From Bdellovibrionota bacterium (GTDB lineage: Bacteria > Bdellovibrionota_C > UBA2361 > JAAYZI01), in the NCBI GenBank assembly GCA_050950765.1, contig JBMNIF010000001.1, forward strand, positions 224,001 through 288,000: a DNA stretch of 64,000 nucleotides, in the 5' to 3' direction. The position numbers were made by a program, and so were the translations under genes. The notes below the pieces were generated by a model. The model was not told the DNA's origin, ran no database searches, and saw only the letters and a program-made list of their open reading frames with translations. Shown here one piece after another: positions 10,053 to 59,612 of the stretch. Position 1 is the stretch's first letter. Each line of letters begins with the position of its first letter.

Positions 10053-10823
10053 GTGCCTAAAGTCAGAACGCAGATTTTTGAAGAAAGTGTTGAAGATCCA
10101 GAAGTGGGGGGCTTGCTGAAAGTATCGGAAGAGAATCTGCACCATTTGCGGGATGTATTACGGGTAAAAAATGGGGATCTGTTAAAGATAGTTATTAATT
10201 CTAAAGAGGTGGCTTTAGCTGAGGTCATTCTTGAAAAAAAGCGGATCTATGCCAAAATTTCCGAAATAAAAGAGATTGAGCGTGTTATCAATCCGATTAC
10301 TACCCTCTGTTTTGCTGTGTGTAAATCTGCACAAAATGAGTTGGTTGCTGAAAAAGCTACTGAATTAGGGGTTGAAAACATTCTTTTTTGGAGATCTGAA
10401 CATACAGGGATTAAGGTTAACGAAAAAGAGTTCGCTGCAAAAACGGTGCGGCTTAAAAAAATAGCAGAGGGGGCAGCACGACAATCCAAGCAACTTTTTA
10501 TCCCGCAGATCTTTATGAAGAATAGTTTATCAGAGGCGCTCTCTTTTGTGCAAAGTTCTTATGGAGGGGTCTTAATTTATGCTGCTTTAGAGGATAACGC
10601 TCGTTACGTTCATCAAATAGAAGCTCTGAAAAATGGGTTAGATCAGCAGCTGCACATCTTTATCGGGCCGGAAGGCGGTTTCTCTGAGAGAGAAAGAGAT
10701 TTTTTGCAAAAAACGGCGTTGCCGCTCTCTTTAGGGAGTTCCGTTTTAAAAGCGGAGACTGCTGCTATTGTAGCGATCAGTCAGCTACAAGCTTTTTGTC
10801 GTATCTCTGAGACCTCTTTGTGA
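10053..10823 (+). CDS. rsmE: 16S rRNA (uracil1498-N3)-methyltransferase
   Basis: HHLRDVLR, KATELGV, AARQS, IGPEGGF and LKAETA. Confidence 0.93.
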   Translation: MPKVRTQIFEESVEDPEVGGLLKVSEENLHHLRDVLRVKNGDLLKIVINSKEVALAEVILEKKRIYAKISEIKEIERVINPITTLCFAVCKSAQNELVAEKATELGVENILFWRSEHTGIKVNEKEFAAKTVRLKKIAEGAARQSKQLFIPQIFMKNSLSEALSFVQSSYGGVLIYAALEDNARYVHQIEALKNGLDQQLHIFIGPEGGFSERERDFLQKTALPLSLGSSVLKAETAAIVAISQLQAFCRISETSL

Positions 10824-11477
10824 TGTGGTGTCAGGAGTAAAATTAAAAAGTGAGAGAAAGTTTTTAATGATAAGGTTTTCTACTTCAGAGAAATCTACCG
10901 CACGGTCTGTTTCTTCTGAGATTGAAGTCATCTGAATATCGTTAAAGCCGCACGGATTGATCAACTTAAATTTATCAGATGCTTTAACGTTTAAGGCAAA
11001 GCCGTGTAGGGTACACCACTTTGAGATGCGTACACCGATAGAAGATATTTTTTTACTCTCTGAAAGCCAGACCCCTGTGCGATCTTTTAAACGGATGCCG
11101 TTAATGTTGAAGGCAGCTAGCGTTCTTATTACTGTCTCTTCAAGGTTATAAATATAACGATGCACACCACGTTGCTGTAACTTTTCAAGGTTAATGATGG
11201 GGTAGCAAACGATCTGCTCCGGTGTGTGTAGTGTAATATCACCGCCACGTTCAATCTTTATAACCTCTATGCCGAGAGTTTTTAAGGTTTCGTTTGTGAC
11301 GAGGATGTTTTTTGTATCACCACGTCGTCCCAATGTTATGATAGGGTTGTGGCGGCATAAGATAAGGGTATTGAAATCTATGCCGCGCATTAAATCTGCT
11401 TGAAGGCGACGTTGAAGTTGTAAGACGGTAGTGTAATCTGTCAGCCCCAACTGTTTAATAACGAGATTATTTAACAA
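10785..11477 (-). CDS. lipB: Lipoyl(octanoyl) transferase
   Basis: H..TLGRR, RGGDITLH, KISSIG, HGFALN and INPCG. Confidence 0.93.
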   Translation of the reverse strand: MLNNLVIKQLGLTDYTTVLQLQRRLQADLMRGIDFNTLILCRHNPIITLGRRGDTKNILVTNETLKTLGIEVIKIERGGDITLHTPEQIVCYPIINLEKLQQRGVHRYIYNLEETVIRTLAAFNINGIRLKDRTGVWLSESKKISSIGVRISKWCTLHGFALNVKASDKFKLINPCGFNDIQMTSISEETDRAVDFSEVENLIIKNFLSLFNFTPDTTSQRGLRDTTKSL

Positions 11478-11487
11478 ACCTATCCCT

Positions 11488-12879
11488 TTATGAATTGATC
11501 GGTCGCTTTAAAGCTACGGCAGCAGCCTCCGAAAGAGCTTCAGAAAGGGTGGGGTGAGCATGAATACTGTTTAAGAGGTCTTGAGCCGTGCCGTTTGCCG
11601 TACGAACTTGACACGCTTCTGCGATTAACTCCGCTGCTTGCGGGTGTAAGATATGCACGCCTAAGATAGTATTATCTTTAGGAGACGTTAATAGCTTTAC
11701 GAACCCTTCTGTTTCTGCCGTAGCTTGAGCTTTACCGATGGCTAAGAAGGGGATCTTCGAGACGGTATATTCGAGACCGGCTTCTTGCAATTTACCCTCC
11801 GTTAAACCGACGGATGCCACCTGTGGTCTGCAATATGAGCACGCTGGAATATTGTCATAGTGCATCACTGCATCCATGCCAGAAGCGACTTCTGCAGCAA
11901 CTAGCCCTTCGTGAGCGGCTTTGTGTGCTAGTAGTGGCGGCTTCGTGATATCACCGATAGCATAACAGTGCGGAAGAGAGGTTTGCATCTTTTCATTTAC
12001 GGGGATGAAGCCGTTTGAGAGGGAAAGTCCGACCTCCTCCAATCCGATCTCTTCAGTGTTTGGAACAACGCCTATCGCTAAGAGACAACTATCACCTACC
12101 CAAGAGATGTCTTCAGTTGGAGTGGATATCATCGCTGTAACGGTATCTTTCGTGCGTTTTATAGCACTAACCTTTGAAGCTGTTTTGATAATCATACCAC
12201 GACGGGTAAGGATCTTTTGTAGCTCCGCAGCGATCTCGCTATCATCAAGGGGTAAGATCTGATCCAGCATTTCAACCAATGTAACTTTTACGCCGAGGGT
12301 ACTGAAAAAATAAGCGAGCTCAACACCGATCGCTCCCGAACCGATTACAAGAAGGCTTTCCGGCAACTTCTTTAAGGCTAGAATAGTGCGTGATGTGTGT
12401 AAGACCTCTCCGTCAGGTTCAAAGTTTGGCATAAGGCGAGGGCGTGCGCCCGTTGCAAGGATAACGTCGGTATAAGCCAGCTCAGTAAGGGAGGAGTCGG
12501 CGGAAGGTTGAAGTAAGACCTTATTTTGAGGGGCAAGTTTTGCAAAGCCTGTAATGACCTCGATATTATTCTTCTTCATTAAGAAATCGACACCACGTCC
12601 GATTGTTTGAGTAACTTGACGAGATCTTTCGATGATGCGTGGGAAGTCAACTTCAAAGCCTGAAACTTTAATCCCGAAACGGGAAGCGTTTTTTATCTCC
12701 GTTAAAAGTTCAGCTGATTTTAAAAGAGCTTTTGATGGGATGCAGCCCCAGTTAAGGCAGGTGCCACCTAAGAGGTCTTTTTCAATTAAGGTAACTTTAC
12801 GTCCGAGTTGAGAAGCACGAATGGCAGCAGTGTATCCAGCAGGACCAGCTCCGATAATAACTAAATCTTTAATCTCCAT
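11488..12879 (-). CDS. lpdA: Dihydrolipoyl dehydrogenase (E3)
   Basis: GAGPAG, GGTCLNWGCIPSK, GSGAIG and HAHPTLSE. The start could be 12879 or 12891. Confidence 0.95.
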   Translation of the reverse strand: MEIKDLVIIGAGPAGYTAAIRASQLGRKVTLIEKDLLGGTCLNWGCIPSKALLKSAELLTEIKNASRFGIKVSGFEVDFPRIIERSRQVTQTIGRGVDFLMKKNNIEVITGFAKLAPQNKVLLQPSADSSLTELAYTDVILATGARPRLMPNFEPDGEVLHTSRTILALKKLPESLLVIGSGAIGVELAYFFSTLGVKVTLVEMLDQILPLDDSEIAAELQKILTRRGMIIKTASKVSAIKRTKDTVTAMISTPTEDISWVGDSCLLAIGVVPNTEEIGLEEVGLSLSNGFIPVNEKMQTSLPHCYAIGDITKPPLLAHKAAHEGLVAAEVASGMDAVMHYDNIPACSYCRPQVASVGLTEGKLQEAGLEYTVSKIPFLAIGKAQATAETEGFVKLLTSPKDNTILGVHILHPQAAELIAEACQVRTANGTAQDLLNSIHAHPTLSEALSEAAAVALKRPINS

Positions 12880-13070
12880 AACCCACCCCATAATTAATAA
12901 AAATGATAAAATATAGAGTCACAGATAATATAGAATAAAATAAGAGGAAAGAACAAAAAAGAGATATTTAGTAGGTTAGATAGAATTTAAAGACTAGCTA
13001 ATTAACGGATTACCCTCCTTTACTTTAAAAAAACCTTAAACAGAAGCTTAAAGTGATCTTTACTTACAGG

Positions 13071-40433: not shown

Positions 40434-42262
40434 CCTGAATTCCCGCGAAATTATACCATACAAACGTGTTTTTAAAGGTAGCTTTCGAGCGGTATAATCT
40501 TACTTTTTCTTAAAAATACTTTTTAGAAAGTCATCTTCTTCAATATTGAAAATTTTCAAAATATCCTTTTGTTTTTTTGTTAACGGAACCATTAATTTAC
40601 TGCCATTTTTAGTTTCTATAACTTTAATTTTTTGAAGCTCTTTAATGACATCAGGTATATTAAACTTTTTTTGCCTTGTATCATTTTTAAGTAAATTAAG
40701 AATATAACTTCTAAGTATAAGAGCTAAAAATCCAACAAAAAGTTTTCCTTCTGTGGTTTGAAGATTATGTGTTTTAAGTCTTCTAAAATCAATTTCATTT
40801 TTTAGCTGGAAAAATTGTTTTTCAATTACATCTTTTTGACGATAACGAAAAAGTGCTTCACTCGGATTTGAATCACAACCAATACCAATCAAAATTAAGA
40901 AGCCACAATTTCTCAAGTATTCATCTATAGCTTCTGATTTTTTTTCATAAGTAAAACCATCTTCATTTATTTTAATATCAAAATATTTCCTATATTTTTT
41001 ACGATCCAGCAAAGAGTATTTTAATTTTTTCAGTTCTTCTAACTCTTCTTCCATTCTAGAAATTTTCTCGTAAAATTGAACTATCTCATATGGCGCCTTT
41101 CCCATATTGTAATAAACATAAATCTTTACAGGTTGTCCCATAACAGTATCTATTACAGAACAACCAAAAGTAGAGGTTCCTTTTATATAATTAGCATCTT
41201 GCTTAATAAGTGCAGTGTGATTTTCTAATATTCTTTTAGCGTCATTCCAATATAGTGGCAAAGGACAAAGTAGTCCAAACTTTTGCCCTTCTTCATTTGC
41301 TACTTCCGCTAAATTATCTTGCGTCACAAAACCTTGATCCGTAACAAGGTTAATACGATTATTAAGACTAATAAATGGAAAGTCTCTTAAAAGAAAACTA
41401 AAATATGTCTTATCTGTAATGCTGCCATTATAAACTTGATAGAATAAAGGAAGCTTCGTTGTAGAGCCGTAGCACATACCTATATTTATTTGCGGCAATT
41501 TATCCATATCCCTATTATAGCCAAACTCCAATATGCTTATTTTTTTACTATAAGAAGATATGGAAGTTACGTCATAATACCAACATTCTTGAGCTAAATA
41601 TCGCTTCGTCCATTTCTTAAAAAAATTAAGTCTTTTCTCGTAGTCAATACGTTCAAAAAGACGACTTATTTTTTGACTTGTTAATTCAGAAATTTCATAT
41701 GGTAAGACACTATCATCTATCCAACTTGAAGCATGTGATACTACATTTCCATTTGCTAGAATATAAAACGCTAAAGTTAAAATCTCGTATGTGTCATTTC
41801 CAAAAATTGAAAGCAATGTCTTGTCTAACCTTAAATCTTTTACAATCTTATTTAAAACATAAGTAAGACCAAAAGATTTATTGCTAATAACATATCTATT
41901 AGAATCATCTGGAAACAAATCATAGTAATTTCTATTAGGAATTAATTTCTTACCGCTTTCATCTAGCTTCCCTATACCTATTTCATCAAACGTAGGCTCT
42001 CCGTTTTCACGACGAAAGTTCATCCTGTAATAGATATAAGTAGTCCCATTTTTGTTTTTCTTACGAGCAATTTGCCTATCTGGTAAGTCAACTTTTTTAG
42101 TTATTTTTTTTCATAAAAAACCTCCCTAATATGTATAGGGCAATCATACCATACAAACAGGAAATGTCAATATAGAAAAATATATAACTAACTAAAATAT
42201 CAATAAAAAATACGGTGGCTTATTTCTGGAATGGAGAAAAGATAAAAATTGCGGAATTTAGG
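40434..42262 (-). mobile_element. IS1634-family insertion sequence, copy 2 (1829 bp), with a 7-bp TSD
   Basis: Near-identical inverted copy of 2998-4825. TTGGCAT is duplicated at 40427-40433 and 42263-42269. Confidence 0.95.
40500..42114 (-). pseudogene. IS1634 transposase with a +1 frameshift right after the start codon
   Basis: A8 instead of A7 after the ATG (T run at 42104-42111). The remaining 507 aa match copy 1. Confidence 0.8.
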
Positions 42263-43419
42263 TTGGCATAACCCTCCCCTAGCAACCACAGTGCCCTTTT
42301 TAGACTGGCTTGGATCATATCCGGTGCATTTTCTGTTATCTTTTTTTTCTGTTCTGTGGTGAGCTCACGTTTTGTTTCTTTAACAATTTCTAGTACAGGT
42401 AATACGGAGTTTGCAGCGTTCAGGTAAATTTTACGAGCAGTCGATTCTGACATTTCTGCTAGTCCGCCTTGGATTATATAGTTCGCAAATCTTTCTATTA
42501 TTGCGTTCTGTTTGTTGGTGGGATCAATTCCTGTTTTTTTAGCAATTTCAAGAGCAGATAGTATGCACGTCTTAACGTCACTGATACTGGTAAAGCGAGT
42601 ACGAAAAATTCCTTCCAATGCGTTGTTTAGTTCGCATTTAATCGCACGCCTCGCAGTGTCTCCTAGCATATCGTTAAGTTTTTTGGGGAGCTTAATCCCT
42701 GTTTCTTCAGAAAATTTACGCGCAAGTAACACAGAGTCTATAGCGTCAGCGCTATTAAGAGCGGAACCATAACGACAAACAACTTTTGTCCATGCTTCTG
42801 CTAGTTGAACTTTGGTCACATTCGCTGAGGGGAATTTTTTTCTAGCATTATTTACGATTGAAGCAGCTGGTGAATCATTTACAGGACGAGAAGGAAGGTT
42901 ATGTCCAGCTAGTGGGTTCTCCCCCCCCTCGTTGTGATCCACTTCGTGATTGGACTTAAAACTAGGATTGATCATAATATTACCTTATACAAATACAACA
43001 ATACTTCTTACTTAAAAGCATTACTTAAAAACAATTTTTAAGGATTATAATGTTTTTTAAAAACCTAAGAAACGTTTCCAACAAAAAATAATATTTAATT
43101 TTTTTCCTGACTTATGAGCTTTTTTTGAGTTTTTAGCTAAGTTTGTTCATTATAAAAAACTAACTTATTGAACTTGTTGAAATATGAGAAGAAGTTTTTT
43201 AAGAACGGTGAAAATATCCAACGGTGAAAATATCAACCGTTCCATCCTTTAGCTAGAAGCTTTCTTTTCCTTTTTCTAACCTCTGAGCTTTTTTAAAAGA
43301 GTGTCTAGGCTAGGAGTGTTTAGGACAGGTAGAGTGAGGAACTTAGACAATATAAAGAGCTCGAATCTAGCGCTTATTTTGTAGGCATGTCTGGCGGATA
43401 GTTTTTTGAGAAAAAGACC

Positions 43420-46614: not shown

Positions 46615-46920
46615 AGGGTTTTTTGTACCACCCTTCAGCAAGAAGTGGGTTCATATATCCACGTTTTTCTAGAAGATGCGGCTTTTCTACTTGGAAAAGT
46701 TGGCACTACTAAAAGTCGCTAGTGCCAAAATGTGGCTATATTGGCACTAGTGGGGATTAAAAAGCAGGTGCCACCCACCAGTACTATCAATAATATCAGG
46801 ACGTTAACAAAGGCTTAGGGCTTGGTAAATTTGGTACCACCCACCAGTGACAACAGGACGGGCGGCGACTTGCAGAACAAATCAGCTAGATCTCTACGGA
46901 GGTAAAAAGTGGGTGTCCTA
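46615..46920. repeat. Modular repeat cluster 4 (degenerate, inverted)
   Basis: GGTGCCACCC and GGTACCACCC cores with AAAAGTGGGTGTCCTA and TCTCTACGGAGGTAAAA modules. Confidence 0.85.
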
Positions 46921-47070: not shown

Positions 47071-47180
47071 GAGTCTGGGGGGGAGATATTAAAAAACAGG
47101 TTATTTCAAAAGAGAGGGAAAAGTATTGATTCCTCTAAATATGAGAGTCTGGTGAAAAGATATTAAAAAACAGGTTATTT
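47071..47180. repeat. Two ~36-bp direct repeats upstream of the E1-FabH fusion gene
   Basis: gagtctgg-N7-atattaaaaaacaggttattt occurs twice. Confidence 0.8.
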
Positions 47181-47241: not shown

Positions 47242-50200
47242 TTGGGAAAACAGATTGTTTCAAGAGAAGGTGCGGATGATGGTTGCGATCAAGTAGAGAT
47301 GCTGCCACTTATGCGGGAGATTTATGATTTTTGTGTTAAAGCGCGTGAGATTGATGCCTTAGAGCTGGATTTCGTCCGTCGGGGAGAAGCTTTTTTTCAT
47401 GTTTCGTGTAGCGGTCATGAAAATCTGGCGTTTCTCGGTCCTCACTTAATCGCAGATGATTATCTGCACTGCCATTATCGCGACAAAGCTTTGATGCTCT
47501 ATCGTGGGGTAACACCTAAACAATTTTTCTTAAGTTTATTTTGTAAAGATGAAAGCCATAGTCACGGCAGGCAGATGTCGGCACACATCTCAGACCGCAC
47601 TTTAAATATCCTCAGTATCGTTGGACCTGTCGGTAATAACGCTTTGCAATCCGTCGGAATCGCCTCAAAGATAAAAGATAGCCCCACCAATCCGATCGTT
47701 TATTGCGCCATAGGTGACGGCACAAGTCAGCAAGGAGAAGTGCTGGAGGGTGTCGCGCAGGCGGTGCGTTGTGAATTGCCTGTGCTGTTTGTCGTTGAAA
47801 ATAACGGTTTGGCGATATCATCTCATACGAAAGGACGAACCTTTTTTTCGAGACCAGATGGTAAGGCGGAGGAGTTCTACGGTCTTCCGATCAACTATAT
47901 TAATGGTTGCAATCCACTCGAAGTTTATAAAAAATTCGGTGCTATTGTGCAGCAGATGCGGCGAGATCGTAAACCAGCTATCGTGGTAATCGAGGTTGAG
48001 AGGTTGACTAATCACACTAATGTTGATGATCAGGAAGTTTACAGAACTTCGGATGAGATCGCGCATAACTGGGAAACATCAGACCCCATTGTGATCCTTG
48101 AAAAATGGTTGCTGGATAACGGAGTTTCGCAAGTTGAGCTAAGTGAAAATAGGGAAAAGATCAGGAGTGCACTTAAGGAAGAGGCAGAAAATGCTAGAAG
48201 TGCTAAGGAGCCGCAACCTGAGTTTACTGCTAAGGCTCCTTTGTCGGAAAAATTATTAAATTGTAAAGATTATTGTGGAGGCTCTCCTGCCAAAGGTGGC
48301 GAGGGAGAATCCCTTACCATGATCGAAGCGATTAGAGAAGTTTTGCGGTATCACTTAAAAAACGATCCCGCCGTAACACTTTACGGCGAAGATATTGAGG
48401 ATCCTAAAGGGGATGTTTTTGGTGTAACGCGGGGACTCACAGAGGAGTTCGCGGGGAGAGTTAGGAACTCTCCACTTTGCGAATCAACGATAGTAGGGTT
48501 CTCTGTCGGGGAAGCGTTGGCTGGTGGGAGACCCGTAGCGTTTTTGCAGTTCGCAGATTTTATACCGATCGCTTTTAATCAGATCAGTACTGAAATGGCG
48601 TCTATGTATTGGCGGACAGGCGGAAAATGGCAAGCTCCCGTTATTTTGATGGTTTCAATGGGTGGTTTTAAACCTGGGCTTGGGCCGTTTCACGCCGCCT
48701 CTATGGAATCAACGGTGGCACATATTCCAGGGCTAGATGTTTTCCTACCTTCAACTGCTGGTGATGCAGCAGCACTTTTAAATGCCGCTTTTGAATCAAA
48801 ACGTCCGACGGTGTTTTTCTATCCGAAAAGCCTTTTAAACAGCCGCTCTTATACCACCACCCCCGATATTGAAAAACAGATAGCGAAGATCGGCACAGCT
48901 GTGCTACGAGCTGAAGGGAGTGATCTAACGTTTGTGGGGTGGGGCAATGTTTTGCCGATCCTTGAGAAGGTTGCTGCAACGTTAGCGAAATATGATGTAA
49001 CGAGTGATGTTATAGACCTGCGCTCGATCTCTCCGTGGGATGAGTCGTTAGTGTTGGAGTCTGCACGAAAAACGGCGCGAGTTGTTATTGTATCTGAAGA
49101 AAATGGAACGGCTTCAATGGCTGCTGAAATAGCAGCAACTATCGCTGAGAAAGTAGAAGACAAGGTGCAGATAAAACGGGTCACGCGACCTGATACATTC
49201 ATCCCGTGTAATTTTGCTAATCAACTTGAGGTGCTGCCGAGTTATAAATCAACTTTAGAAGCAGCGCTTGAGCTACTTGGCGGGACAGTTGAGTGGGAAT
49301 GCGTCGATAAGGAAGGGGGCGACTATATTATTAATGCTTTAGGTGCGAGCCCTTCGGATGAATCTGTTACTATCGTTGAATGGTTTGTTAAAGCTGGTGA
49401 TGTGATAGGTCCAGGCGCGGTGCTAGCTGATGCTGAAGCGGAGAAGGCTTCCTTTTCGGTTTCTTCACCTGTTGCCGGTATGGTGCAGGCTTTACTTGTT
49501 GCGGAGGGGGAGAGCACCCATGTAGGTTCCCCATTGTTAAAAGTTTCAACTGAGAACGTTAACAAAACATATAGACCGATCACAAAAGAGGACGCAGGTT
49601 TGGCACGTATCACGCTACCTGAAAAGAGTTTGAAGAAGAGTTCAAAGCAAGAAGATCGCGCTGCACAAAAACAGGAGGTCTTGTCGACTACTGCGGGGGA
49701 TGATTTTATTGCTGGCATTGTTGCTGTAAGTGCGGTTACAGGTAGTAGAAAAGTAACGAATGAAGAGATCTCAACGAATTGTCCGACTTGGACGGCTGCA
49801 GATATCTTTAGAAGGACGGGAATTAAAAATCGTTATTGGGTAAATGATGATGAAGATGCTTTGACACTAGCGTTGCAGGCAGCGAAAGACGTGCTTAAGA
49901 AAGGTGCTATTACACTTGAAGATCTTGATATGTTGATCGTTTCAACAGGTTCTCCTATTGAGATTACGCCGTCTATGGCGTGCAGTGTTTTAAGTGGACT
50001 ATCAGATCCTGCGCGGTCTGCTGCTATTCCGACTTATGATATCAATGCTGCTTGTTCGGGCTACCTCTACGGCTTACTTATTGCGTATGACTTTTTAAGG
50101 TCTGTGCCGACGGGGCGAGTCCTCTTGATCACGACGGAGGTTAGTTCGGATATAGTAGATCCTGCGGATCCTGATACTGCTGCGATCTTTGGAGATGGTG

Positions 50201-50667
50201 CTACGGCAACACTCTTAGTCGGTGCTGAAATGCGATCACAGGCGAAACTAAAGGTGGAGCGCCCTGTGCTTGGTGCTAAAGGCGATCTTGCTAGAGTTCT
50301 GCAGATTCCAAGAGACTTAACGCACCGCATGTATATGGATGGAGTAAAAGTTTTTCCGGAAGCTGTTCGAAATATGGTGTTGTTCTTAAATAAAGCTTGC
50401 GCAGCAGCTGGGGTTAAAATTTCAGACCTTGATCGTGTTATCTCTCATCAAGCTAATCAGCGCATCCTTAATTCAATTAGTCAGAAGGCGCATCTAGCAG
50501 AAGGTGTGATGTATTCTATGATTGCAGAGTATGGAAATACATCCTCATCCTCTATCCCGTTTTGTATAGATAAATTATGGGACGATATTCAACCTGCTAA
50601 AACTTGGGGGCTATGCGCTTTTGGTGGTGGATTTACCTTCGGCGGCGCTGTGCTTAAAACGTTATAG
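47242..50667 (+). CDS. Fusion of 2-oxoacid dehydrogenase E1alpha, E1beta, a lipoyl domain and 3-oxoacyl-ACP synthase III (FabH-like)
   Basis: E1alpha HYRD and GDG..VENN; E1beta GED and SPLCE..IVG; lipoyl EAEKA; KAS III AACSGY, HQAN, GNTSSSS and FGGG. Confidence 0.92.
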   Translation: MGKQIVSREGADDGCDQVEMLPLMREIYDFCVKAREIDALELDFVRRGEAFFHVSCSGHENLAFLGPHLIADDYLHCHYRDKALMLYRGVTPKQFFLSLFCKDESHSHGRQMSAHISDRTLNILSIVGPVGNNALQSVGIASKIKDSPTNPIVYCAIGDGTSQQGEVLEGVAQAVRCELPVLFVVENNGLAISSHTKGRTFFSRPDGKAEEFYGLPINYINGCNPLEVYKKFGAIVQQMRRDRKPAIVVIEVERLTNHTNVDDQEVYRTSDEIAHNWETSDPIVILEKWLLDNGVSQVELSENREKIRSALKEEAENARSAKEPQPEFTAKAPLSEKLLNCKDYCGGSPAKGGEGESLTMIEAIREVLRYHLKNDPAVTLYGEDIEDPKGDVFGVTRGLTEEFAGRVRNSPLCESTIVGFSVGEALAGGRPVAFLQFADFIPIAFNQISTEMASMYWRTGGKWQAPVILMVSMGGFKPGLGPFHAASMESTVAHIPGLDVFLPSTAGDAAALLNAAFESKRPTVFFYPKSLLNSRSYTTTPDIEKQIAKIGTAVLRAEGSDLTFVGWGNVLPILEKVAATLAKYDVTSDVIDLRSISPWDESLVLESARKTARVVIVSEENGTASMAAEIAATIAEKVEDKVQIKRVTRPDTFIPCNFANQLEVLPSYKSTLEAALELLGGTVEWECVDKEGGDYIINALGASPSDESVTIVEWFVKAGDVIGPGAVLADAEAEKASFSVSSPVAGMVQALLVAEGESTHVGSPLLKVSTENVNKTYRPITKEDAGLARITLPEKSLKKSSKQEDRAAQKQEVLSTTAGDDFIAGIVAVSAVTGSRKVTNEEISTNCPTWTAADIFRRTGIKNRYWVNDDEDALTLALQAAKDVLKKGAITLEDLDMLIVSTGSPIEITPSMACSVLSGLSDPARSAAIPTYDINAACSGYLYGLLIAYDFLRSVPTGRVLLITTEVSSDIVDPADPDTAAIFGDGATATLLVGAEMRSQAKLKVERPVLGAKGDLARVLQIPRDLTHRMYMDGVKVFPEAVRNMVLFLNKACAAAGVKISDLDRVISHQANQRILNSISQKAHLAEGVMYSMIAEYGNTSSSSIPFCIDKLWDDIQPAKTWGLCAFGGGFTFGGAVLKTL

Positions 50668-50951: not shown

Positions 50952-53900
50952 TTAGCCAGGAACGTCTTCTTCCCTCATTTTGAATACGAGTATTTCATCA
51001 TCATCATCTTGATTTATTTCATCAGGATCTCTAAATCTAAGATTGTTTCGTTTAACTTTAATTAATCTTCTTATAGTAAGATCTCCTTTAGGTTCCTCCA
51101 TAGTTTCTGTCTCGCGCACTTGAGCGGCTAGCAACTCCTCATCCTCTTTATTTTTTTCTATAATTTTTTTAACTAAATCGCCAGCGCCCCCAGATCTCAA
51201 GCGTGGATGGACTCTTGCTTTTACCGTTGTTTCTACTTTAGCTTTAGCTGGCTGTCTAACTACATTTTTTGTTTCTGTTTTTGCTACTGCTTCAGTTTCT
51301 GTTTGTTGCTTTACCTTTACTGCAGTTTCTGTTGCTGTTTGTTTTGCAGGTTGTGTTTCTTTTGCTGTTTGATGCTCTGTTTCTTCTGCAGGTTGTGGCT
51401 TTGTTTGTTCTAGAGGTTTTGTCTCTGTTATGGGGGCTGTTTGCTCTGGTATTTCTTCATAAATTGGTTTTGTCTCTATTGGCTTTTGTTCTGGTATTTC
51501 TATTTCATAAATTGGTTTTGTTTCTGTTGTCGTTTCTTCTGCTCTGTTCTCTACGATCTTTGTTTGTTCTGCAACATTATTAGTCGTCGCAATGCGTGAG
51601 CCAGCGCGTGCTGCAGCGGCAGCGGTCGCCTCTCGTATTGAATTAAAAGAAGCTGGTTGTGTTAAGTCTATTTTCCCGAGTAAATGCTCTATATTTCCAA
51701 AAGAATTAGAGGTTTCTTCGCTAACCAATTTTACGACACCGGCGGGAGTTGGCTCTGGTGGTGGCGGTAGATCCATTGCATTATTGATACGATCTGCAGG
51801 TCTCTTTTTAAATTCTGCAACTGCTTTGTTTTGTCTAAAACTATCAAGCCAATTATTTACATCAAATTTCTGTTTTGGTACTTGAGACACTTTGGTTTCA
51901 GTTAAGGAATTAAATTTTTCATTGAATGCGGCACTATTTTTTTCAGCAGAAAAAGTCTGCTTTATATTTTTGAAACCGAGTTCAGAAGAGAAATTATTCT
52001 CTGTGGTAGCCTTTATTTTGTTAATCTGTCCAGATGATGGTGATGAAGAAGTACCATCGCCTAATTTAGGTAATCCTTCTGAACGTGGCTCTGACCTTAC
52101 AGAGGGACGTTGTGCATTACCTTTTGGAGCCTTTAATGGGGTAGATCTTTGTTGTGGAGTTACGGGTTTAACATTTTTTAAAAATTTTGTGATTTCTAGA
52201 TAGTCACTTTTAGAAAGAAAACCATCGTTTGCCATGTCCTTTAAAATAGTTTCGACTTCTTGAAAAGTTTTAGCACTTGATAATTCAAACCGCCGAGTTT
52301 TAAGACGAGTATCTTTGAGAATTTCTCTTGCTTTTGGAGTTAGTTGTGGAGAACTATCTCCTTTATTTGATGAGTTAAATGTTTTAGTATCTGTGTTTCC
52401 TCCTTTTTTAAACTCGGTTTCCGTAGTAGGTGTTGTGTTCTTTGGAGGAGTTTTAGGCTTTGGTTGAGCGGAGTTAACTGTTGTAGCCCTTCCTCCTGTT
52501 TGAGAAGATCCGCCTTGTGAAGCAGATGCGGTGTTTTTAGGAGGTTGTTGCTTTGAAGATACGTTACTATTTCCTTGTGGTGGGGTGGTTTTAGTTGTTG
52601 CAGAGTTTGTTCTTGTTTGAGGAGATCCGCCTTGTGAAGCAGATGCAGAGTTTGTTCCCATTATAAATCCGTCTAAATCGAAAGAAGATAGGGATTCTTT
52701 CAACCAATAGCGAACCTCACCTATTGTTAACAGTTCGTCCAGTTTTTGCGCCTTCCGAAGTTCTATTTTTAGCTTATTAGGAACTTCAGGATGCTTAAGA
52801 AGGATGTTTGTTTGGCGAGGGGTTAATTTTTGCTGGTTTAAACTCTGTAAAAATATTGTTGTCTTCTCTGTTGGTGCAGAAACAGTTGAAGGATTTGGAG
52901 CTTTTCCTGCTTGTTTGAAAAAGTTGTCCAAGCTGTGATTTTGTGGCTTAGCAGAGGGAACTGGAGATGATTCTCCAGTTGAAAGAGAGTTGCTATTAAC
53001 TCTCAGACTTCTAGCAGAAGAGGAATTCTGCCCTTTTGCTGAATTAAGATTAGAAAAAAACTCTTCTCCCGTCTGAGTTCTACTGTTCCCTCTTCTGCTT
53101 GAGGGAGTTTGTTTAGCTTTTGAACTTGCAGGAGTTGCAGTAGTACCTCTAGCTGCTGCAGATCCTTGTTGAGGTGAAGATGGTGGTGTAGAGCTTCTCG
53201 TAACTGTTGTAGAAGTTATACTTCCGCCGCTTTTTTGTAATCTAGCTTGAAGTTTGTTGATATAATCTGGATTAACCGTTACTCCCTGCTCTTTGAAAGC
53301 TTTGCTCATTTTTTTTATTACTCCACGAGAGGGCTTTCTTGATATATCTGAAGCATTACGAAGTGTGCCTCGTGTAAGAGGTTGCCCAGTGCGGTCACTT
53401 TTAGAAAGAAAACCATCGTTTGCCATGTCCTTTAAAATAGTTTCGACTTCTTGAAAAGTTTTAGCACTTGATAATTCAAACCGCCGAGTTTTAAGACGAG
53501 TATCTTTGAGAATTTCTCTTGCTTTTGGAGTTAGTTGTGGAGAACTATCTCCTTTATTTGATGAGTTAAATGTTTTAGTATCTGTGTTTCCTCCTTTTTT
53601 AAACTCGGTTTCCGTAGTAGGTGTTGTGTTCTTTGGAGGAGTTTTAGGCTTTGGTTGAGCGGAGTTAACTGTTGTAGCCCTTCCTCCTGTTTGAGAAGAT
53701 CCGCCTTGTGAAGCAGATGCGGTGTTTTTAGGAGGTTGTTGCTTTGAAGATACGTTACTATTTCCTTGTGGTGGGGTGGTTTTAGTTGTTGCAGAGTTTG
53801 TTCTTGTTTGAGGAGATCCGCCTTGTGAAGCAGATGCAGAGTTTGTTCCCATTATAAATCCGTCTAAATCGAAAGAAGATAGGGATTCTTTCAACCAATA

Positions 53901-56900
53901 GCGAACCTCACCTATTGTTAACAGTTCGTCCAGTTTTTGCGCCTTCCGAAGTTCTATTTTTAGCTTATTAGGAACTTCAGGATGCTTAAGAAGGATGTTT
54001 GTTTGGCGAGGGGTTAATTTTTGCTGGTTTAAACTCTGTAAAAATATTGTTGTCTTCTCTGTTGGTGCAGAAACAGTTGAAGGATTTGGAGCTTTTCCTG
54101 CTTGTTTGAAAAAGTTGTCCAAGCTGTGATTTTGTGGCTTAGCAGAGGGAACTGGAGATGATTCTCCAGTTGAAAGAGAGTTGCTATTAACTCTCAGACT
54201 TCTAGCAGAAGAGGAATTCTGCCCTTTTGCTGAATTAAGATTAGAAAAAAACTCTTCTCCCGTCTGAGTTCTACTGTTCCCTCTTCTGCTTGAGGGAGTT
54301 TGTTTAGCTTTTGAACTTGCAGGAGTTGCAGTAGTACCTCTAGCTGCTGCAGATCCTTGTTGAGGTGAAGATGGTGGTGTAGAGCTTCTCGTAACTGTTG
54401 TAGAAGTTATACTTCCGCCGCTTTTTTGTAATCTAGCTTGAAGTTTGTTGATATAATCTGGATTAACCGTTACTCCCTGCTCTTTGAAAGCTTTGCTCAT
54501 TTTTTTTATTACTCCACGAGAGGGCTTTCTTGATATATCTGAAGCATTACGAAGTGTGCCTCGTGTAAGAGGTTGCCCAGTGCGGTCACTTTTTTCAATT
54601 GCAGCTCGTAAAAAATTTGTACCTTCTTCATTTAGCGATATCCTTTTTCCAAAGGCGGAGTTTTTTACTTTTCCTTTGTTTAAAGCATTAATGGCCTTTT
54701 CTCGTGATATTGGCTTGCCGTCTACTACAGAACGTGGAGTGCGCAAGGAAAAGATAGGAGCAAGAAACATGGATAACCCTGCTGCCCGTCCAGCTGAAAG
54801 GAGGGAATTTGTGCCGACAACCCAGAAGCCGTTTCCGATACCGTTTTCCCAAGTTGCTTCCTGTGTTGCCGCACCTAAACCACCAAAGGTTGCTCCTGAT
54901 ACAAAACCGTCAGTAGCTGCTATGAATGTATTGTTAGCTATTCTGCGAAATATTTTTTCCTGAATATATTGTTGTGCTACGGCATAAGGATGAGCGACAA
55001 CTTGTTCTACTGTTTCACTAATAAAGACTTCTCCAGCCTCCTTTCCTGCTTTTTTTGCACCTTCTGCTGCTACTTTTGCTGCTGTTTTTTTTGCACTTTC
55101 TGCTGTTACTTTTGCTGCTGTTTTTTTTGCCGCAGCTTCTCCTAAACTTTCCGCAAATTCTTTTCCTGTGTTTTTTGTAACAATTTCTGCAACATTTTGT
55201 ACCCCCTCTTTTGCGGATTCTTTAATGACAGTTTTTCCCAAGTTTTCTGCGCCTTCTTGTATTGCTTCTGTTGCAATGACTCTCCCAACGCTTTTTGCGC
55301 CTTCTTCTACTGCTTCACCACCTACCTTGTAGATCGTATTGGAAACGACTGTGGTTACGCCGCTGAAACCTTTTTTCTCTAAGTATTTGGCAACTTGCCC
55401 TATGACTACTTCCTGAGTTTTTTTTGCAGCACCTAAACCAACACTAAATCCAGCACCATCAATTGCTGAGTTTATAAGTATCTCATCGATCTCTCCTGTG
55501 ATACTCATACCTCGTCCGACACCGATAATAGCTGTGCGAGTAACAAGACCTGAAGCGGTTGTCCAAAATGCGACAACAAGGGGTGTTGCACTACCACCTG
55601 AGCCGCAGATTATGCCGACAGAAAATGCTGTGGCAACACCTGTTCCGACAGCATTAGCAGCTGCTTTGGTTACCTCCGCTTTTACTTCGCGATAAAATAC
55701 AGCCTGTGTTTCTAGGCTATCCATCATTGTTAAAAATTGAATGTACTCTTCTTGAGAGATCTCTCCTGAGCCGATCTTTTGATGTAACGTCTTTGCCTCA
55801 TTATAGACTTTTGTAATGTGTTCTGAAAATTGAGGCACGAGCCATTCGACGCAACCACCCGTTGCATTTTTATAACGGGTTTCAATCTTTGACATCATCA
55901 AGTCAATGTTTTTGCGATTCTCTTCGGGATCTACACTAAAGTTGCGAGAAACAATCTTTGTTTGTAGCAGAGCATCAACTTGATCATCGCCGGACATCTC
56001 TTTTTTAATTCTTTTAACAATGTGACAGCCAGTCTCTTTATAAAAAGCTGCATCCAGCTCTAAAAACTCCTGTTCGGAGGTGATGCCGCTTAACGCTTCA
56101 CGAACCATGGCTTCATTTGTGCCGTCAAACCATCCACGAAAACCGAGCTTCAATTTTTGTAAACGTGAAAGGTCTCCCGTGTTGAAGACATCTTGAAAAG
56201 CATCAAATTGTCTACTTGAAAGCTCTGAGTGGGCGTCATTTACAAGTTCAGATTTATAAGTAGCGCTATATGCGGCATTGACCTTTTCTCTATACGTTGC
56301 ATGGCGTTTAATAGCTTCCTCTCTCTCTCCTTCTGGAAGGTATCTAATCTCTTGAGATATTAAGAAAGTATCACGTAGCTGCTCCTCAGCCGTGCCCCAG
56401 ACACCCTTCATAGCAAAACGTGCTTCCACAGCTCCAGCTTGTACAGCATCGCCATTAAGAAGTGCTTTTAACCAATCACGTCCGAGTGTTCTACTTTTTG
56501 AAGAGCCGGACATTAGGGTATCAATTTTTTTAAGGAGAGCTTCTTTCCCCCCTGAAGCATCGAGTAAGCCCTGTAAACGCTCTTGATTGATCTCCATTTT
56601 TACGGGGTCTACTAAATAGTTTTGCATTTCAAGACAGGTGCCGTGGATATCAATACTTGAACAGCCGAGCCAGTTTTCTTTTGAAAGACGTTCCACTAAG
56701 TAAGCTGCCTTTTGTGTATTTTCATCTCCTGAAAGTATAGCATTACAACGAGCGATCTCTGCGCCTGTGAAGTTGGCTTCTAGTAAAGCAGCATCCAGAG
56801 ATTTGCCATGGTGTGTTTTAAAATTTTCTTTAAATTCGGTGGCGATACGCGCTCTCTCTTCAGGTGTGGCTGCTGGATCTTGAAGGTAAGTTAAGGCTTG

Positions 56901-59612
56901 AAAAACCTTTTCTTTTGATGCCCAGAAAGTATAATCAAGGCTGGAATTAAGTTTTGCCAAAGCTATTTTTTGTGTGTCGCCCGTTGTTAGCGCTGTCGCT
57001 AGTGCTAGATCCGTTCCTGAAAAATCATTATGCATATCATCTTCAAGACGTGCACCGTATTTTTCAAAATAGATAGATTTAATTAGCTCTATCTCTTCTT
57101 TACTTTTGCCGTCTAAGGCTGCATACCATTTCTTCTCATCAGTTCCGGCGGATGATATAAAAGAAATTATACCAGATCTCCCTTTATCTTGGTATATCAT
57201 CGCCCCCATAGTGGCGTTACGCAGAGCATCTGCAGCAGCGGCGCAATTTATATAATGGTCAGAACCGCGCGTTTGAAGGGCATATGCTTCTCCTTTGAGG
57301 GTGTCAATGATATTCTCTTCGTTTAAAATTTCTTCTTTTTGTGTTGCCAAAAAGGTTGCTTTAGCAACATCTTCTTCAATCCCCGTAGAACGAAGATTTT
57401 CAATTTCAGAGTCTATAATTTGTGAAAGTCTGGCACGACGTGCTTCCTCTAGTGGCGCTAGTGATTGAAGAAGCTCTTCTCTATTTTTGCTTAAGGTTTC
57501 AGCTGTTTTTTGCTTTATTTTGATATTAGTAGTTGAAGCTTGAAGTTCTCCAATCTTTATGCTCATTTGGCGTGAAAGTTTTGAGGCTGCACTTAATTGA
57601 GCTTCATCCTGCAATTGTTGTAAGAATAGGGTTCTACTCGTGGCATAATTTGGATCATTTAAATCAAAACCATTTTCTTTAAAAAGAGCTTCATAAGTTT
57701 TACGTTTTTCATCGAGTGCTGTTATCTCTGACTGATAATCTTTTCTTTCTGTTGATTGAAGACTAAAGCCTGCTTCCCCTAAAATAGTGCCTCTTTCTTT
57801 GGCGTAAAGGTAATCCTTCTTTTCTAATAGATTTACGATCTGCTCATATGAAAGCGCACCGTTCTTTAAAATTTCAGAGGCGAAGTAATTATCAGAATTA
57901 AAAGTTAGAGAAACAGAGCCGTCACTTTCTGTAACTTCTGTATATGTACCTGAAAAATTTTCAAGTTGACTTTCAAGAGTTGTTCCATAAATCGTTTCAT
58001 AATCTTTCTGAATGGCGATTCTTTCATCTTCTGTTTTATCTGCAAAAAAAGTATGAAAGCGTAAAACTCCATTTTCACGATCTGTTACGGTGGTGTGTAG
58101 TTGCGTTATAAGCTCCCGCCGTTCTGGGGAGATCGTTATAAGAGTTTTTTGAGCGGTTGCGAGACTTTCTCGTTCCTGTTTAAAAGTTGTAGAGACATCC
58201 ACTGCTGGGAAAGATTCAGTGTTAGGAGTTTTAGAAAGAGCTTTTACCTGTTCTAGCGCTTTATCTTTAGCACCCGTCCAAGTTCTAAAAAAACCGGTGG
58301 TATTATTAAGGTTTCTTTCAATCCATTGTTCCGGATTTAGGCGCAATACCGAAGACCCTGCTTGAGCATCAAGAAAGGCTAGCCTAAAAAATTTATATTC
58401 TCCCTGCTTTATCTCTGAAAGGATGGCAGGATCTTTTGTTTTTAAAAATTCCTGCGCCTTAGCAGTCATCCGTATCTGACTCTCTTTTTGATATTTTATT
58501 GTTCGGTCTGCAACGGCTTCGATTTTAGTTGCTAAATCATACTTTTCTAAAAAAGCGGTGTTCTTTTTAAGATATGCGTTATAGGCATCCTCCCTTAATT
58601 TTGCTGCTGATTGCATACTTGAAGGGGTTTCTCCGATCAGTTTCGCCAGCCTCTGAGCATTATTTGCTATCTCTTGTGCACGAGCTTCATCTGCTGCTAC
58701 TCGTTGCACACTCTTTAAATATTCGACAAGGTCAGGACGACCCTTTAAAATCTCATTATTCTCCACCGTTTCTTGAAAACTCTTCTCAAGTTGTGCAACT
58801 TCTTTTTCTAGTAAGGTTGAATCTTGTGCATATTTTTCAGAGTTTCCAATGATAATTTCATTATCCAGACGTTGAACGCCAGTGTTATACACACCTTGTA
58901 TAGTACCGATAGACTTTCCGCTTTCTTGTGCAAATGTTGCAAGTTTTTCAAGCTCTTTAGAAAGTGCTTCCGTAGTAATCACTTTAGCAGAGTGTTCCGT
59001 AGCTACTTCTGTTGTTTTTGTTGCAAAAGAGAGTTGTTCTTCTAAAACTTCTTTGACGATAGTTGTGACTATCTCTTCAAGAGGCTCTTCATCCTCACCA
59101 CGGTTTGCGTTTTTTAATTCAGCAACTCTATCTCCATTAAGCTCTTTTAAAGCTTTTTCTAAAACTGATTGAAGATTAGTGCTATCCAAATTATTTTTTG
59201 CTTTATTAACCAGAGCTTTAAATGCAGCTTCTATAATCTGTTGCCGTTGTTCGAGAGAAAGCCCCTGCAAAAGTCTTAGCAACTCTTCACGTTCTAGCTC
59301 TTCTTTGTTTTTTAACCCACCAATCTGTTCATATATTTCAAAGAGTACAGCTTGCGAAATCTCTTCTGCTGGAGGGAGTGTTGGAATCGGTGAAAGCTCC
59401 TTCCTGAGGTCGTTAAGCTTTTCCTCCATTATCGGATTAAATAGGCTTGCAGAAAGGGAACCAGTGTGAGTATTGCTAACTTGCGCGGTTGGTGTTTGGG
59501 TTTTTAATGAGTTTGCAGAAAGGTCAGCAGGGGGGGGGTTGCTAACTTGTGCAGCTGGTCTCTCTGTTGTGTTTACTTGTGGCGTTGCTCCTCGGTTCGA
59601 CATCTCCAACAA
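50952..59612 (-). CDS. Giant protein with annexin-like repeats, hydrophobic Gly/Ala segments and a duplicated Ser/Thr/Pro-rich region
   Basis: AGTDEKKW...IKSIYFEKYGARLEDDMHNDFSG, GVWGTAE and DGTNEA...IKKEMSG. Confidence 0.85.
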   Translation of the reverse strand: MLEMSNRGATPQVNTTERPAAQVSNPPPADLSANSLKTQTPTAQVSNTHTGSLSASLFNPIMEEKLNDLRKELSPIPTLPPAEEISQAVLFEIYEQIGGLKNKEELEREELLRLLQGLSLEQRQQIIEAAFKALVNKAKNNLDSTNLQSVLEKALKELNGDRVAELKNANRGEDEEPLEEIVTTIVKEVLEEQLSFATKTTEVATEHSAKVITTEALSKELEKLATFAQESGKSIGTIQGVYNTGVQRLDNEIIIGNSEKYAQDSTLLEKEVAQLEKSFQETVENNEILKGRPDLVEYLKSVQRVAADEARAQEIANNAQRLAKLIGETPSSMQSAAKLREDAYNAYLKKNTAFLEKYDLATKIEAVADRTIKYQKESQIRMTAKAQEFLKTKDPAILSEIKQGEYKFFRLAFLDAQAGSSVLRLNPEQWIERNLNNTTGFFRTWTGAKDKALEQVKALSKTPNTESFPAVDVSTTFKQERESLATAQKTLITISPERRELITQLHTTVTDRENGVLRFHTFFADKTEDERIAIQKDYETIYGTTLESQLENFSGTYTEVTESDGSVSLTFNSDNYFASEILKNGALSYEQIVNLLEKKDYLYAKERGTILGEAGFSLQSTERKDYQSEITALDEKRKTYEALFKENGFDLNDPNYATSRTLFLQQLQDEAQLSAASKLSRQMSIKIGELQASTTNIKIKQKTAETLSKNREELLQSLAPLEEARRARLSQIIDSEIENLRSTGIEEDVAKATFLATQKEEILNEENIIDTLKGEAYALQTRGSDHYINCAAAADALRNATMGAMIYQDKGRSGIISFISSAGTDEKKWYAALDGKSKEEIELIKSIYFEKYGARLEDDMHNDFSGTDLALATALTTGDTQKIALAKLNSSLDYTFWASKEKVFQALTYLQDPAATPEERARIATEFKENFKTHHGKSLDAALLEANFTGAEIARCNAILSGDENTQKAAYLVERLSKENWLGCSSIDIHGTCLEMQNYLVDPVKMEINQERLQGLLDASGGKEALLKKIDTLMSGSSKSRTLGRDWLKALLNGDAVQAGAVEARFAMKGVWGTAEEQLRDTFLISQEIRYLPEGEREEAIKRHATYREKVNAAYSATYKSELVNDAHSELSSRQFDAFQDVFNTGDLSRLQKLKLGFRGWFDGTNEAMVREALSGITSEQEFLELDAAFYKETGCHIVKRIKKEMSGDDQVDALLQTKIVSRNFSVDPEENRKNIDLMMSKIETRYKNATGGCVEWLVPQFSEHITKVYNEAKTLHQKIGSGEISQEEYIQFLTMMDSLETQAVFYREVKAEVTKAAANAVGTGVATAFSVGIICGSGGSATPLVVAFWTTASGLVTRTAIIGVGRGMSITGEIDEILINSAIDGAGFSVGLGAAKKTQEVVIGQVAKYLEKKGFSGVTTVVSNTIYKVGGEAVEEGAKSVGRVIATEAIQEGAENLGKTVIKESAKEGVQNVAEIVTKNTGKEFAESLGEAAAKKTAAKVTAESAKKTAAKVAAEGAKKAGKEAGEVFISETVEQVVAHPYAVAQQYIQEKIFRRIANNTFIAATDGFVSGATFGGLGAATQEATWENGIGNGFWVVGTNSLLSAGRAAGLSMFLAPIFSLRTPRSVVDGKPISREKAINALNKGKVKNSAFGKRISLNEEGTNFLRAAIEKSDRTGQPLTRGTLRNASDISRKPSRGVIKKMSKAFKEQGVTVNPDYINKLQARLQKSGGSITSTTVTRSSTPPSSPQQGSAAARGTTATPASSKAKQTPSSRRGNSRTQTGEEFFSNLNSAKGQNSSSARSLRVNSNSLSTGESSPVPSAKPQNHSLDNFFKQAGKAPNPSTVSAPTEKTTIFLQSLNQQKLTPRQTNILLKHPEVPNKLKIELRKAQKLDELLTIGEVRYWLKESLSSFDLDGFIMGTNSASASQGGSPQTRTNSATTKTTPPQGNSNVSSKQQPPKNTASASQGGSSQTGGRATTVNSAQPKPKTPPKNTTPTTETEFKKGGNTDTKTFNSSNKGDSSPQLTPKAREILKDTRLKTRRFELSSAKTFQEVETILKDMANDGFLSKSDRTGQPLTRGTLRNASDISRKPSRGVIKKMSKAFKEQGVTVNPDYINKLQARLQKSGGSITSTTVTRSSTPPSSPQQGSAAARGTTATPASSKAKQTPSSRRGNSRTQTGEEFFSNLNSAKGQNSSSARSLRVNSNSLSTGESSPVPSAKPQNHSLDNFFKQAGKAPNPSTVSAPTEKTTIFLQSLNQQKLTPRQTNILLKHPEVPNKLKIELRKAQKLDELLTIGEVRYWLKESLSSFDLDGFIMGTNSASASQGGSPQTRTNSATTKTTPPQGNSNVSSKQQPPKNTASASQGGSSQTGGRATTVNSAQPKPKTPPKNTTPTTETEFKKGGNTDTKTFNSSNKGDSSPQLTPKAREILKDTRLKTRRFELSSAKTFQEVETILKDMANDGFLSKSDYLEITKFLKNVKPVTPQQRSTPLKAPKGNAQRPSVRSEPRSEGLPKLGDGTSSSPSSGQINKIKATTENNFSSELGFKNIKQTFSAEKNSAAFNEKFNSLTETKVSQVPKQKFDVNNWLDSFRQNKAVAEFKKRPADRINNAMDLPPPPEPTPAGVVKLVSEETSNSFGNIEHLLGKIDLTQPASFNSIREATAAAAARAGSRIATTNNVAEQTKIVENRAEETTTETKPIYEIEIPEQKPIETKPIYEEIPEQTAPITETKPLEQTKPQPAEETEHQTAKETQPAKQTATETAVKVKQQTETEAVAKTETKNVVRQPAKAKVETTVKARVHPRLRSGGAGDLVKKIIEKNKEDEELLAAQVRETETMEEPKGDLTIRRLIKVKRNNLRFRDPDEINQDDDDEILVFKMREEDVPG
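52203..54593. repeat. In-frame 1191-bp tandem duplication
   Basis: 52203-53393 is repeated at 53394-54584, with GTCACTTTT at 52203, 53394 and 54585. Confidence 0.95.

Follow-up and report, generated by a model that had tools for sequence, protein, structure and literature searches.

A single gene from a Bdellovibrionota bacterium probably encodes a one-chain starter of acyl chains that works independently of coenzyme A (CoA). The gene lies within a 64,000-nt stretch of contig JBMNIF010000001.1 (assembly GCA_050950765.1, positions 224,001 to 288,000), referred to here in its entirety as the window, and it joins the E1alpha and E1beta parts of a 2-oxoacid dehydrogenase, a lipoyl domain, and a β-ketoacyl-acyl carrier protein (ACP) synthase III (KAS III) in one open reading frame (ORF). 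In the reading that we consider likely, the acyl group made by E1 would pass from the lipoyl arm to the KAS III cysteine for condensation with malonyl-ACP, with dihydrolipoyl dehydrogenase (E3) acting in trans. By contrast, fatty-acid initiation is taught as a reaction of acyl-CoA and malonyl-ACP on FabH, and in the textbook route acyl-lipoamide is unloaded by an acyltransferase (E2) and CoA. A first-pass annotation of the window had proposed that KAS III takes the place of E2 and receives its acyl group from lipoamide without acyl-CoA. This proposal gains sequence support from the loss of the residue pair that holds CoA adenine, from an exchangeable slot downstream of the lipoyl domain, and from the lack of a detectable E2 in the genome; the transfer chemistry itself is a prediction.

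An intact six-domain fusion

The fusion ORF is uninterrupted, as the first-pass annotation had read it, and encodes six Pfam domains (E1_dh, Transket_pyr, Transketolase_C, Biotin_lipoyl, ACP_syn_III, and ACP_syn_III_C; Table 1). The lysine, cysteine, histidine, and asparagine codons singled out in that annotation are in frame along with the GDG and VENN motifs, and the E1beta start it placed near 48310 coincides with residue 357, the first of Transket_pyr. It had also reported no E2 catalytic domain; likewise, a Pfam scan of the protein found neither PF00198 (E2) nor an E3-binding domain, and the 1141 residues contain no DHR or H...DG motif. The true start codon is uncertain between TTG 47242, which has GAGGA 7 nt upstream, and ATG 47299.

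Independent contigs bridge the domain junctions with no differing letters and no gaps: alpha/beta in runs X7, X8, and X9, beta/lipoyl in X7 and X9, and lipoyl/KAS III in X7 and X8. The three runs belong to separate studies, with no flag on any of them as a possible source, and the gene is covered in pieces, never end to end by one contig. Each of the 119 best homologues also carries the same six domains on one chain, at 49-60% identity and 94-99% coverage. An outlying GC content (45.9%, in the top 3% among the 1066 long ORFs of the genome) and an IS1634 element about 5 kb upstream could be taken as signs of an artefact or of a decayed chance fusion. Because the contigs cross every junction without an indel and the homologues share the architecture, however, an assembly artefact is ruled out, the fusion is confirmed as intact, and we regard either explanation as having a negligible chance of being correct. 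The runs that best cover the gene are labelled as anaerobic digester or bioreactor metagenomes. In one RNA-labelled run, three short contigs map to the gene, which is insufficient for a claim of transcription.

An AlphaFold2 model built on a 120-row alignment has a mean predicted local distance difference test score (pLDDT) of 91.2, with disorder confined to the N-terminus (pLDDT <50 at residues 1-4 and 6-12) and to residues 798-819. Parts of the fusion match branched-chain E1beta and FabH structures in Foldseek, though no listed match spans the whole architecture, and no solved structure with this architecture is among the matches listed by sequence or by fold.

Each hallmark of thiamine diphosphate (ThDP)-dependent E1 enzymes of 2-oxoacid dehydrogenases is present: the GDG...N motif in E1alpha (G158-D159-G160...N188, 47713-47805, with GDG at 47713 and VENN at 47794), the activating glutamate, and two histidines, with Glu414, His258, and His484 invariant in 120/120 fusions. 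The lipoyl domain (PF00364) is acidic, with 3 K/R against 11 D/E, and its attachment residue Lys735 is equally invariant, within the family motif EADKA (EAEKA here). The linker that follows had been described as basic. Instead, residues 792-821 are charge-neutral (6 K/R, 6 D/E), with just one short Lys-rich patch. Predictions of a complex between the KAS III dimer and the lipoyl domain scored 0.00 in two runs, which is evidence neither way.

Table 1. Coordinates of the fusion, its parts, and partner genes in the window (aa, amino acid residues of the fusion)
Feature	Positions	Strand	Details
Fusion ORF, E1alpha-E1beta-lipoyl-KAS III	47242..50667	+	1141 aa, no internal stop
E1alpha (Pfam E1_dh, aa 32-327)	47335..48222	+	YRD 79-81, GRQM 109-112, His258
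E1beta (Transket_pyr 357-533, Transketolase_C 551-661)	48310..49281	+	Glu414 (48481), QFADF 436-440, His484 (48691)
Lipoyl domain, about aa 693-772 (Biotin_lipoyl 707-767)	49318..49557	+	attachment Lys735 at 49444-49446
Conserved KPxTxExPGxPxI segment (aa 778-790), then disordered linker	49573..49698	+	pLDDT <50 at 798-819; no E3-binding domain
KAS III, aa 820-1141 (ACP_syn_III 932-997, ACP_syn_III_C 1053-1139)	49699..50667	+	Cys938 (50053), His1069 (50446), Asn1099 (50536), Arg1074 (50461)
Dihydrolipoyl dehydrogenase (E3)	11491..12918, stop excluded	-	TIGR01350 534 bits, cut-off 408.8; PF02852 single match
LipB octanoyltransferase	10788..11507, stop excluded	-	TIGR00214 and PRK14345 above cut-off; directly after E3

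The KAS III domain retains its catalytic triad and lacks the CoA-adenine pair

The KAS III domain closely resembles FabH in fold, with template modelling (TM) scores of about 0.92-0.94 (by target length) in Foldseek. Cys938, His1069, Asn1099, and Arg1074 are invariant in the 120 close fusions, and the triad extends to distant representatives (Cys 37/37, His 36/37, Asn 37/37). Using an alignment to E. coli FabH to map columns, we found that Arg1074 occupies the position of Arg249, which we take to be the ACP-docking residue of FabH. This column is Arg in all close fusions and in 33/37 distant members, with Lys in 3 more.

The residues that hold CoA tell a different story. An excerpt of PMC4606726 describes the CoA adenine in FabH as sandwiched between Trp32 and Arg151, positions that are Asp854 (49801) and Pro977 (50170) in the fusion. 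Trp is found at the first column in 0/120 close fusions and 2/37 distant ones, and Arg at the second in 0/120 and 1/37. Stand-alone FabH proteins of carrier genomes keep both residues (20/20 for each), a contrast weakened by the choice of these controls as top TIGR00747 scorers, which makes them canonical by selection. At the Asn210 column, 106/120 fusions have Pro. Phe87 is replaced by Thr909 (49966), with Thr in 117/120 fusions and Glu in 0/37 distant members. The OleA of this genome has Glu here, presumably the catalytic base of that enzyme, and because the fusion column is Thr rather than Glu, head-to-head condensation of the OleA type is disfavoured. In BioZ, according to an excerpt of PMC8024396, Arg147, Ser84, and Ser287 bind the distal carboxylate of the glutaryl primer; the column that probably matches Arg147 (E. 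coli Leu142; BioZ itself is outside the alignment) is Leu in 119/120 fusions.

Fused KAS III domains group in a clade of their own (support 0.986), and the domain studied here falls below the FabH cut-offs of TIGR00747 (207.3 vs 292.1 bits) and PRK09352 (243.1 vs 249). Two fusions that retain Trp32, P0285 and P0287, make up the deepest branch in both the E1 and the KAS III trees. Their position fits a loss of the adenine pair that would have come after fusion.

These columns bear on whether the fusion could still depend on CoA, with KAS III passing the acyl group to CoA, or with a separate E2 unloading the arm and KAS III using the resulting acyl-CoA, such that fusion merely co-localises the two activities. 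Trp32 in the two deepest fusions would suit such an arrangement, as would the presence of E2 in other carrier genomes (see below) and the example of OleA, whose family uses acyl-CoA and which can do so without Trp32 and Arg151. The family-wide loss of the adenine pair and the proline at the Asn210 column argue the other way. So does the host genome, in which no E2 was found at 94% completeness, yet every catalytic residue of the fusion is intact. On balance, we judge CoA dependence unlikely.

KAS III occupies an exchangeable position at the end of E1-lipoyl modules

We then asked what else follows E1-lipoyl modules, using a profile search of 50%-representatives, after which 29 selected proteins were scanned with Pfam. 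An E2-type acyltransferase ends the E1alpha-beta-lipoyl module in 11 of the 29 (P0274, P0290, and others). Other modules end in AT-ACP (P0319), in AT-ACP-KS-MT-C-A (P0304), in a thioesterase (P0272), or in an unassigned domain (P0270), and P0253 ends in KAS III-KR-ACP, where the ACP match is weak (E 3.6e-6). In an E1 tree of 102 sequences (FastTree, midpoint root, without a one-clade test), P0274, P0290, P0304, P0272, and P0270 nest within the KAS III clade (support 1.0); the other acyltransferase fusions fall outside it. Together, the tree and the domain swaps are the strongest support for KAS III having taken the slot where E2 stood.

FabH requires its His and Asn for malonyl decarboxylation, and this requirement helps to separate condensation from a second possibility, in which KAS III would be a transacylase only. 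It would then move the acyl group from the lipoyl arm through its Cys to holo-ACP, and FabF would extend the primer acyl-ACP, again without CoA and with no condensation on the chain itself. KAS III and E2-type acyltransferases do fill one slot in related proteins, the host genome has three KS-II-type genes, and QncL-type systems load ACP from a lipoyl arm in the account excerpted from PMC6335953. Conservation of both decarboxylation residues, His1069 and Asn1099, across close and distant fusions speaks against transacylation alone, as does P0253, whose ketoreductase and ACP in cis imply a 3-oxo product. We consider it improbable.

Among relatives, a thioesterase-ended module of the P0272 type (L158:6001-9276) adjoins PhyH dioxygenase and P450 genes. 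On a Streptomyces xanthii plasmid (L128:8944-20211), an E1alpha/beta gene is followed by a megasynthase that starts lipoyl-AT-ACP-KS; it adjoins pabB, chorismate mutase, and prephenate dehydrogenase genes and is likely an arylacetyl loading module.

The host genome encodes E3 and lipoylation enzymes, with no E2 detected

In the host genome (5 contigs, 94% complete), PF00198, a custom hidden Markov model (HMM) of 17 E2-type domains, and tblastn all detected no E2; the control for the PF00198 search recovered 10/14, and 37/40 relatives have an E2. The E3 listed in Table 1 is the only match in the genome and a candidate trans partner for reoxidising the lipoyl arm. LipA and GcvH are encoded on another contig (G000:C3:376465-377349 and 416285-416698) and with LipB provide a candidate lipoylation route. 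With LipA, LipB, and E3 present and E2 absent, the fusion could be lipoylated and reoxidised, with no E2 to unload its arm. GcvT and GcvP were not found, YiiD had no match, and the genome also has PFOR-type (pyruvate:ferredoxin oxidoreductase) enzymes. Scans with simple motifs for ilv, gcv, and fab genes missed a known aminotransferase, and we make no use of their blanks.

The sole other KAS III of the genome is the OleA of a cluster comprising oleA, a fused oleB-oleC, and oleD (G000:C1:370679-375642), leaving the fusion as the only FabH-type KAS III found here. Elsewhere in the genome, a pyruvate dehydrogenase (PDH) E1alpha/E1beta pair looks catalytically dead (G000:C2:467432-469503; alpha without GDG, beta without the GED and Glu motifs). 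A further region (G000:C3:151778-165201) with two ketosynthase (KS) genes, two ACP-like ORFs, a FabG-like ORF, and transfer/export genes resembles, in our estimation, an aryl-polyene cluster.

A proposed reaction cycle and the observations that weigh against it

E1 alpha2beta2 assemblies and KAS III are both two-fold symmetric, and the fusion is probably a homodimer. In the proposed cycle, E1 with ThDP would decarboxylate a 2-oxoacid and reductively acylate lipoyl-Lys735, for which the residues are present and the reaction is that of the family. The arm would then swing about 50 residues, and Cys938 would take the acyl group from S-acyl-dihydrolipoamide, the new step in this scheme. His1069 and Asn1099 would decarboxylate malonyl-ACP docked at Arg1074, again with the residues in place, to give a 3-oxoacyl-ACP for type II synthesis. 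Finally, free E3, whose gene is present, would reoxidise the dihydrolipoamide in trans. Such an enzyme would not be self-sufficient: E3, ACP, FabD, and the lipoylation enzymes must act in trans.

Several observations, in addition to the selection of the FabH controls, weigh against this scheme. The OleA of this genome also lacks Trp32 and Arg151 in the alignment, so their loss is no proof of CoA independence. The absence of canonical FabH from the host is a common condition, with FabH over the cut-off in only 16/41 genomes of the order. Among other carrier genomes (50 of 80 loci, selected to favour longer contigs and a range of taxa), E2 domains occur in 50/50 and canonical FabH over the cut-off in 46/50. 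LipA, E3, and GcvH are retained in 3/3 relatives that have no E2, GcvP, or fusion (G008, G026, and G037; family f8). An E3 motif occurs in only 2/160 flanks of fusion loci (directly downstream in L087, and in L168), and a LipA motif in 0/160.

Because most carriers thus have both E2 and a canonical FabH, the fusion would usually be an accessory starter beside FabH; in these carriers it may be redundant or may be served by an E2 working in trans. The first-pass annotation had pictured a primer factory; as a main route of fatty-acid synthesis, this does not hold generally. Two related proposals were rejected: mutual exclusion of the fusion with FabH or E2, given how many carriers have them, and retention of LipA, LipB, E3, and GcvH for the fusion as their only client, which was dropped when its control failed.

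Substrate preference of the E1 module

Among solved structures, E1alpha is best matched by the Thermus thermophilus branched-chain E1alpha (1um9_A, E 3e-33), compared with E 5e-22 for 1w85 and 1e-15 for human PDH. The E1 is closer to branched-chain than to pyruvate dehydrogenases, with 1um9 and 1dtw as best matches. Branched primers are our leading guess for this reason, and a class IV aminotransferase encoded in the genome was counted toward the same reading. We put about half of the weight on branched-chain 2-oxoacids, the most likely substrates, with iso/anteiso fatty acids as products; the remainder is spread over aryl-pyruvates, 2-oxobutyrate, and pyruvate. Pocket motifs of the fusion E1 are common to E1s that load polyketide synthases (PKS), one of which adjoins p-aminophenylpyruvate-pathway genes, and the branched-chain assignment is tentative. 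One observation counts against it: the nearest annotated E1 that we met (36% identity) adjoins genes of the p-aminophenylpyruvate pathway, such that the substrate may be aromatic.

Distribution and gene neighbourhood

The six-domain architecture occurs in several phyla. At least 658 of 726 pattern-matched stretches in GTDB (stretches, not genomes) encode a relative, as found by an alignment-based scan of contigs; a single-protein scan of the same contigs gave no match. The 80 stretches retained from these are mainly from Spirochaetota, with others from Armatimonadota, Planctomycetota, Sumerlaeota, Syntrophobacteraceae, and Accumulibacter; further carriers include Lentisphaeraceae, KSB3, and additional Planctomycetota. 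One family record is titled 'Branched-chain ketoacyl-acyl carrier protein synthase III', an annotation only, with no test behind it. The first-pass annotation knew of no characterised enzyme with this architecture, and we likewise found no description of the fusion in the literature searched by title and abstract, with most subscription journals outside coverage. The family is real, intact, widespread, and apparently uncharacterised.

Only 2/41 genomes of the host order have the full fusion, and their two copies are placed in separate subclades of the E1 tree. This distribution and the outlying GC content suggest that the gene was horizontally acquired in this genome. None of the 19 matches among plasmid records covers 80% of the fusion protein (0/19).

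The fusion gene stands alone in the window, with no biosynthetic cluster. The 160 flanks surveyed, half from genome loci and half from metagenome loci (80 each), share no conserved acp, fab, or lip neighbour. In the genome set, the genes that recur near the fusion are aconitase (41/80), a NeuB-family gene (31/80), and a downstream short-chain dehydrogenase (SDR). In a subset of spirochaete loci (L065:6314-7090 and similar), a same-strand SDR follows the fusion and is a possible ketoreductase for its product.

Neighbourhoods also inform a third alternative, in which the fusion would start a specialised lipid or small polyketide, for example through aryl-acetyl priming or through condensation with 3-oxoacyl-ACP as in pyrone/quinolone KAS III enzymes. 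Its E1-lipoyl kin load PKS or nonribosomal peptide synthetase (NRPS) lines (P0304, L128), and a PDH-like complex loads phenylacetyl on a carrier for ripostatin in the account excerpted from PMC5490192. The patchy spread within the order, together with the FabH already present in most hosts, would also suit an added, specialised function. The solitary gene does not, with no biosynthetic neighbours shared across phyla in the 160 flanks and with aconitase, the NeuB-family gene, and the SDR as the genes that recur instead. We give this alternative only a small chance.

Other features of the window lie outside these questions. Upstream of the fusion, 46767-46848 and 47071-47180 contain a 16-nt motif resembling repetitive extragenic palindromes (REP-like; 162 exact copies genome-wide) and a direct repeat (36 nt, spacing 74 nt), which may be regulatory. 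At 50952-59612 (- strand), a 2886-aa ORF carries an internal tandem repeat that is exact over 398 residues (period 397); either the duplication is recent or it is an artefact of assembly. Paralogous helical ORFs at 38241-42975 (- strand; 38241-39599 and 42220-42975) have near-identical N-termini and no Pfam match, and the IS1634 transposase (40500-42023) sits among them.

Comparison with known systems

In Bacillus and Staphylococcus, a branched-chain 2-oxoacid dehydrogenase (BCKDH; E1alpha2beta2, E2, and E3) feeds FabH via acyl-CoA. The fusion shares the E1 class, the lipoyl arm, and the FabH fold and triad with this route, and its overall product is predicted to be equal. It differs in being one chain with no E2 core or E3-binding domain, in lacking Trp32 and Arg151, and in its predicted lack of an acyl-CoA intermediate. 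Compared with stand-alone FabH (TIGR00747), it has the triad, Arg249, the Phe304-Gly motif, and the fold; by contrast, it scores below the family cut-off, replaces Trp32, Arg151, and Phe87, and belongs to its own clade.

Closer in manner are systems that load carrier proteins. As excerpted from PMC6335953, QncN/QncL/QncM (quinocarcin) and SclQ1-4 (scleric acid) combine a ThDP enzyme, a lipoyl domain, and an acyltransferase to load ACP. Delivery of an acyl unit by a ThDP enzyme and lipoyl arm is common to them and, by prediction, to the fusion. They differ in their E2-type acyltransferase, ketose donor, and several clustered proteins, where the fusion has a condensing enzyme as acceptor and is a solitary gene. 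For ripostatin, the part of PMC5490192 that cites Fu et al. 2017 (PMID 28098952) describes a PDH-like complex that decarboxylates phenylpyruvate and keeps the product as an acyl-S-carrier starter, with no intermediate set free. Loaders of this design (P0304, P0319, and L128) are kin of the fusion E1. The ripostatin loader, however, serves a modular PKS and one natural product, and no KAS III was found in the scanned proteins of this design. Unlike loading modules of the QncL or ripostatin type, the fusion has no acyltransferase, carrier protein, or cluster; it is predicted to work like such a module, a design that occurs among its kin. By its sequence, the fusion is neither a dehydrogenase complex, nor a canonical FabH, nor a QncL-type loader; it would combine the activities of a dehydrogenase complex and FabH in the way that such a loader links its parts.

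Implications

We give an even chance to a broader view, in which these proteins constitute a widespread and so far undescribed route whose KAS III has switched from CoA to a tethered lipoyl donor. One homodimer would then turn a 2-oxoacid and malonyl-ACP into 3-oxoacyl-ACP, within a modular superfamily of E1-lipoyl-acceptor enzymes whose acyltransferase, KAS III, or thioesterase ends can be swapped, and would serve as the only FabH-type initiator in the present anaerobic-digester organism. If so, the KAS III class would gain a new donor in acyl-lipoamide. Primer supply would be uncoupled from the acyl-CoA pool, such that branched or special lipids could be made without a catabolic dehydrogenase complex, and one portable gene could install primers in engineered hosts or load PKS. 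Many database records that carry the labels 'transketolase', '2-oxoisovalerate dehydrogenase E1', or 'beta-ketoacyl-ACP synthase 3' would need re-annotation as well.

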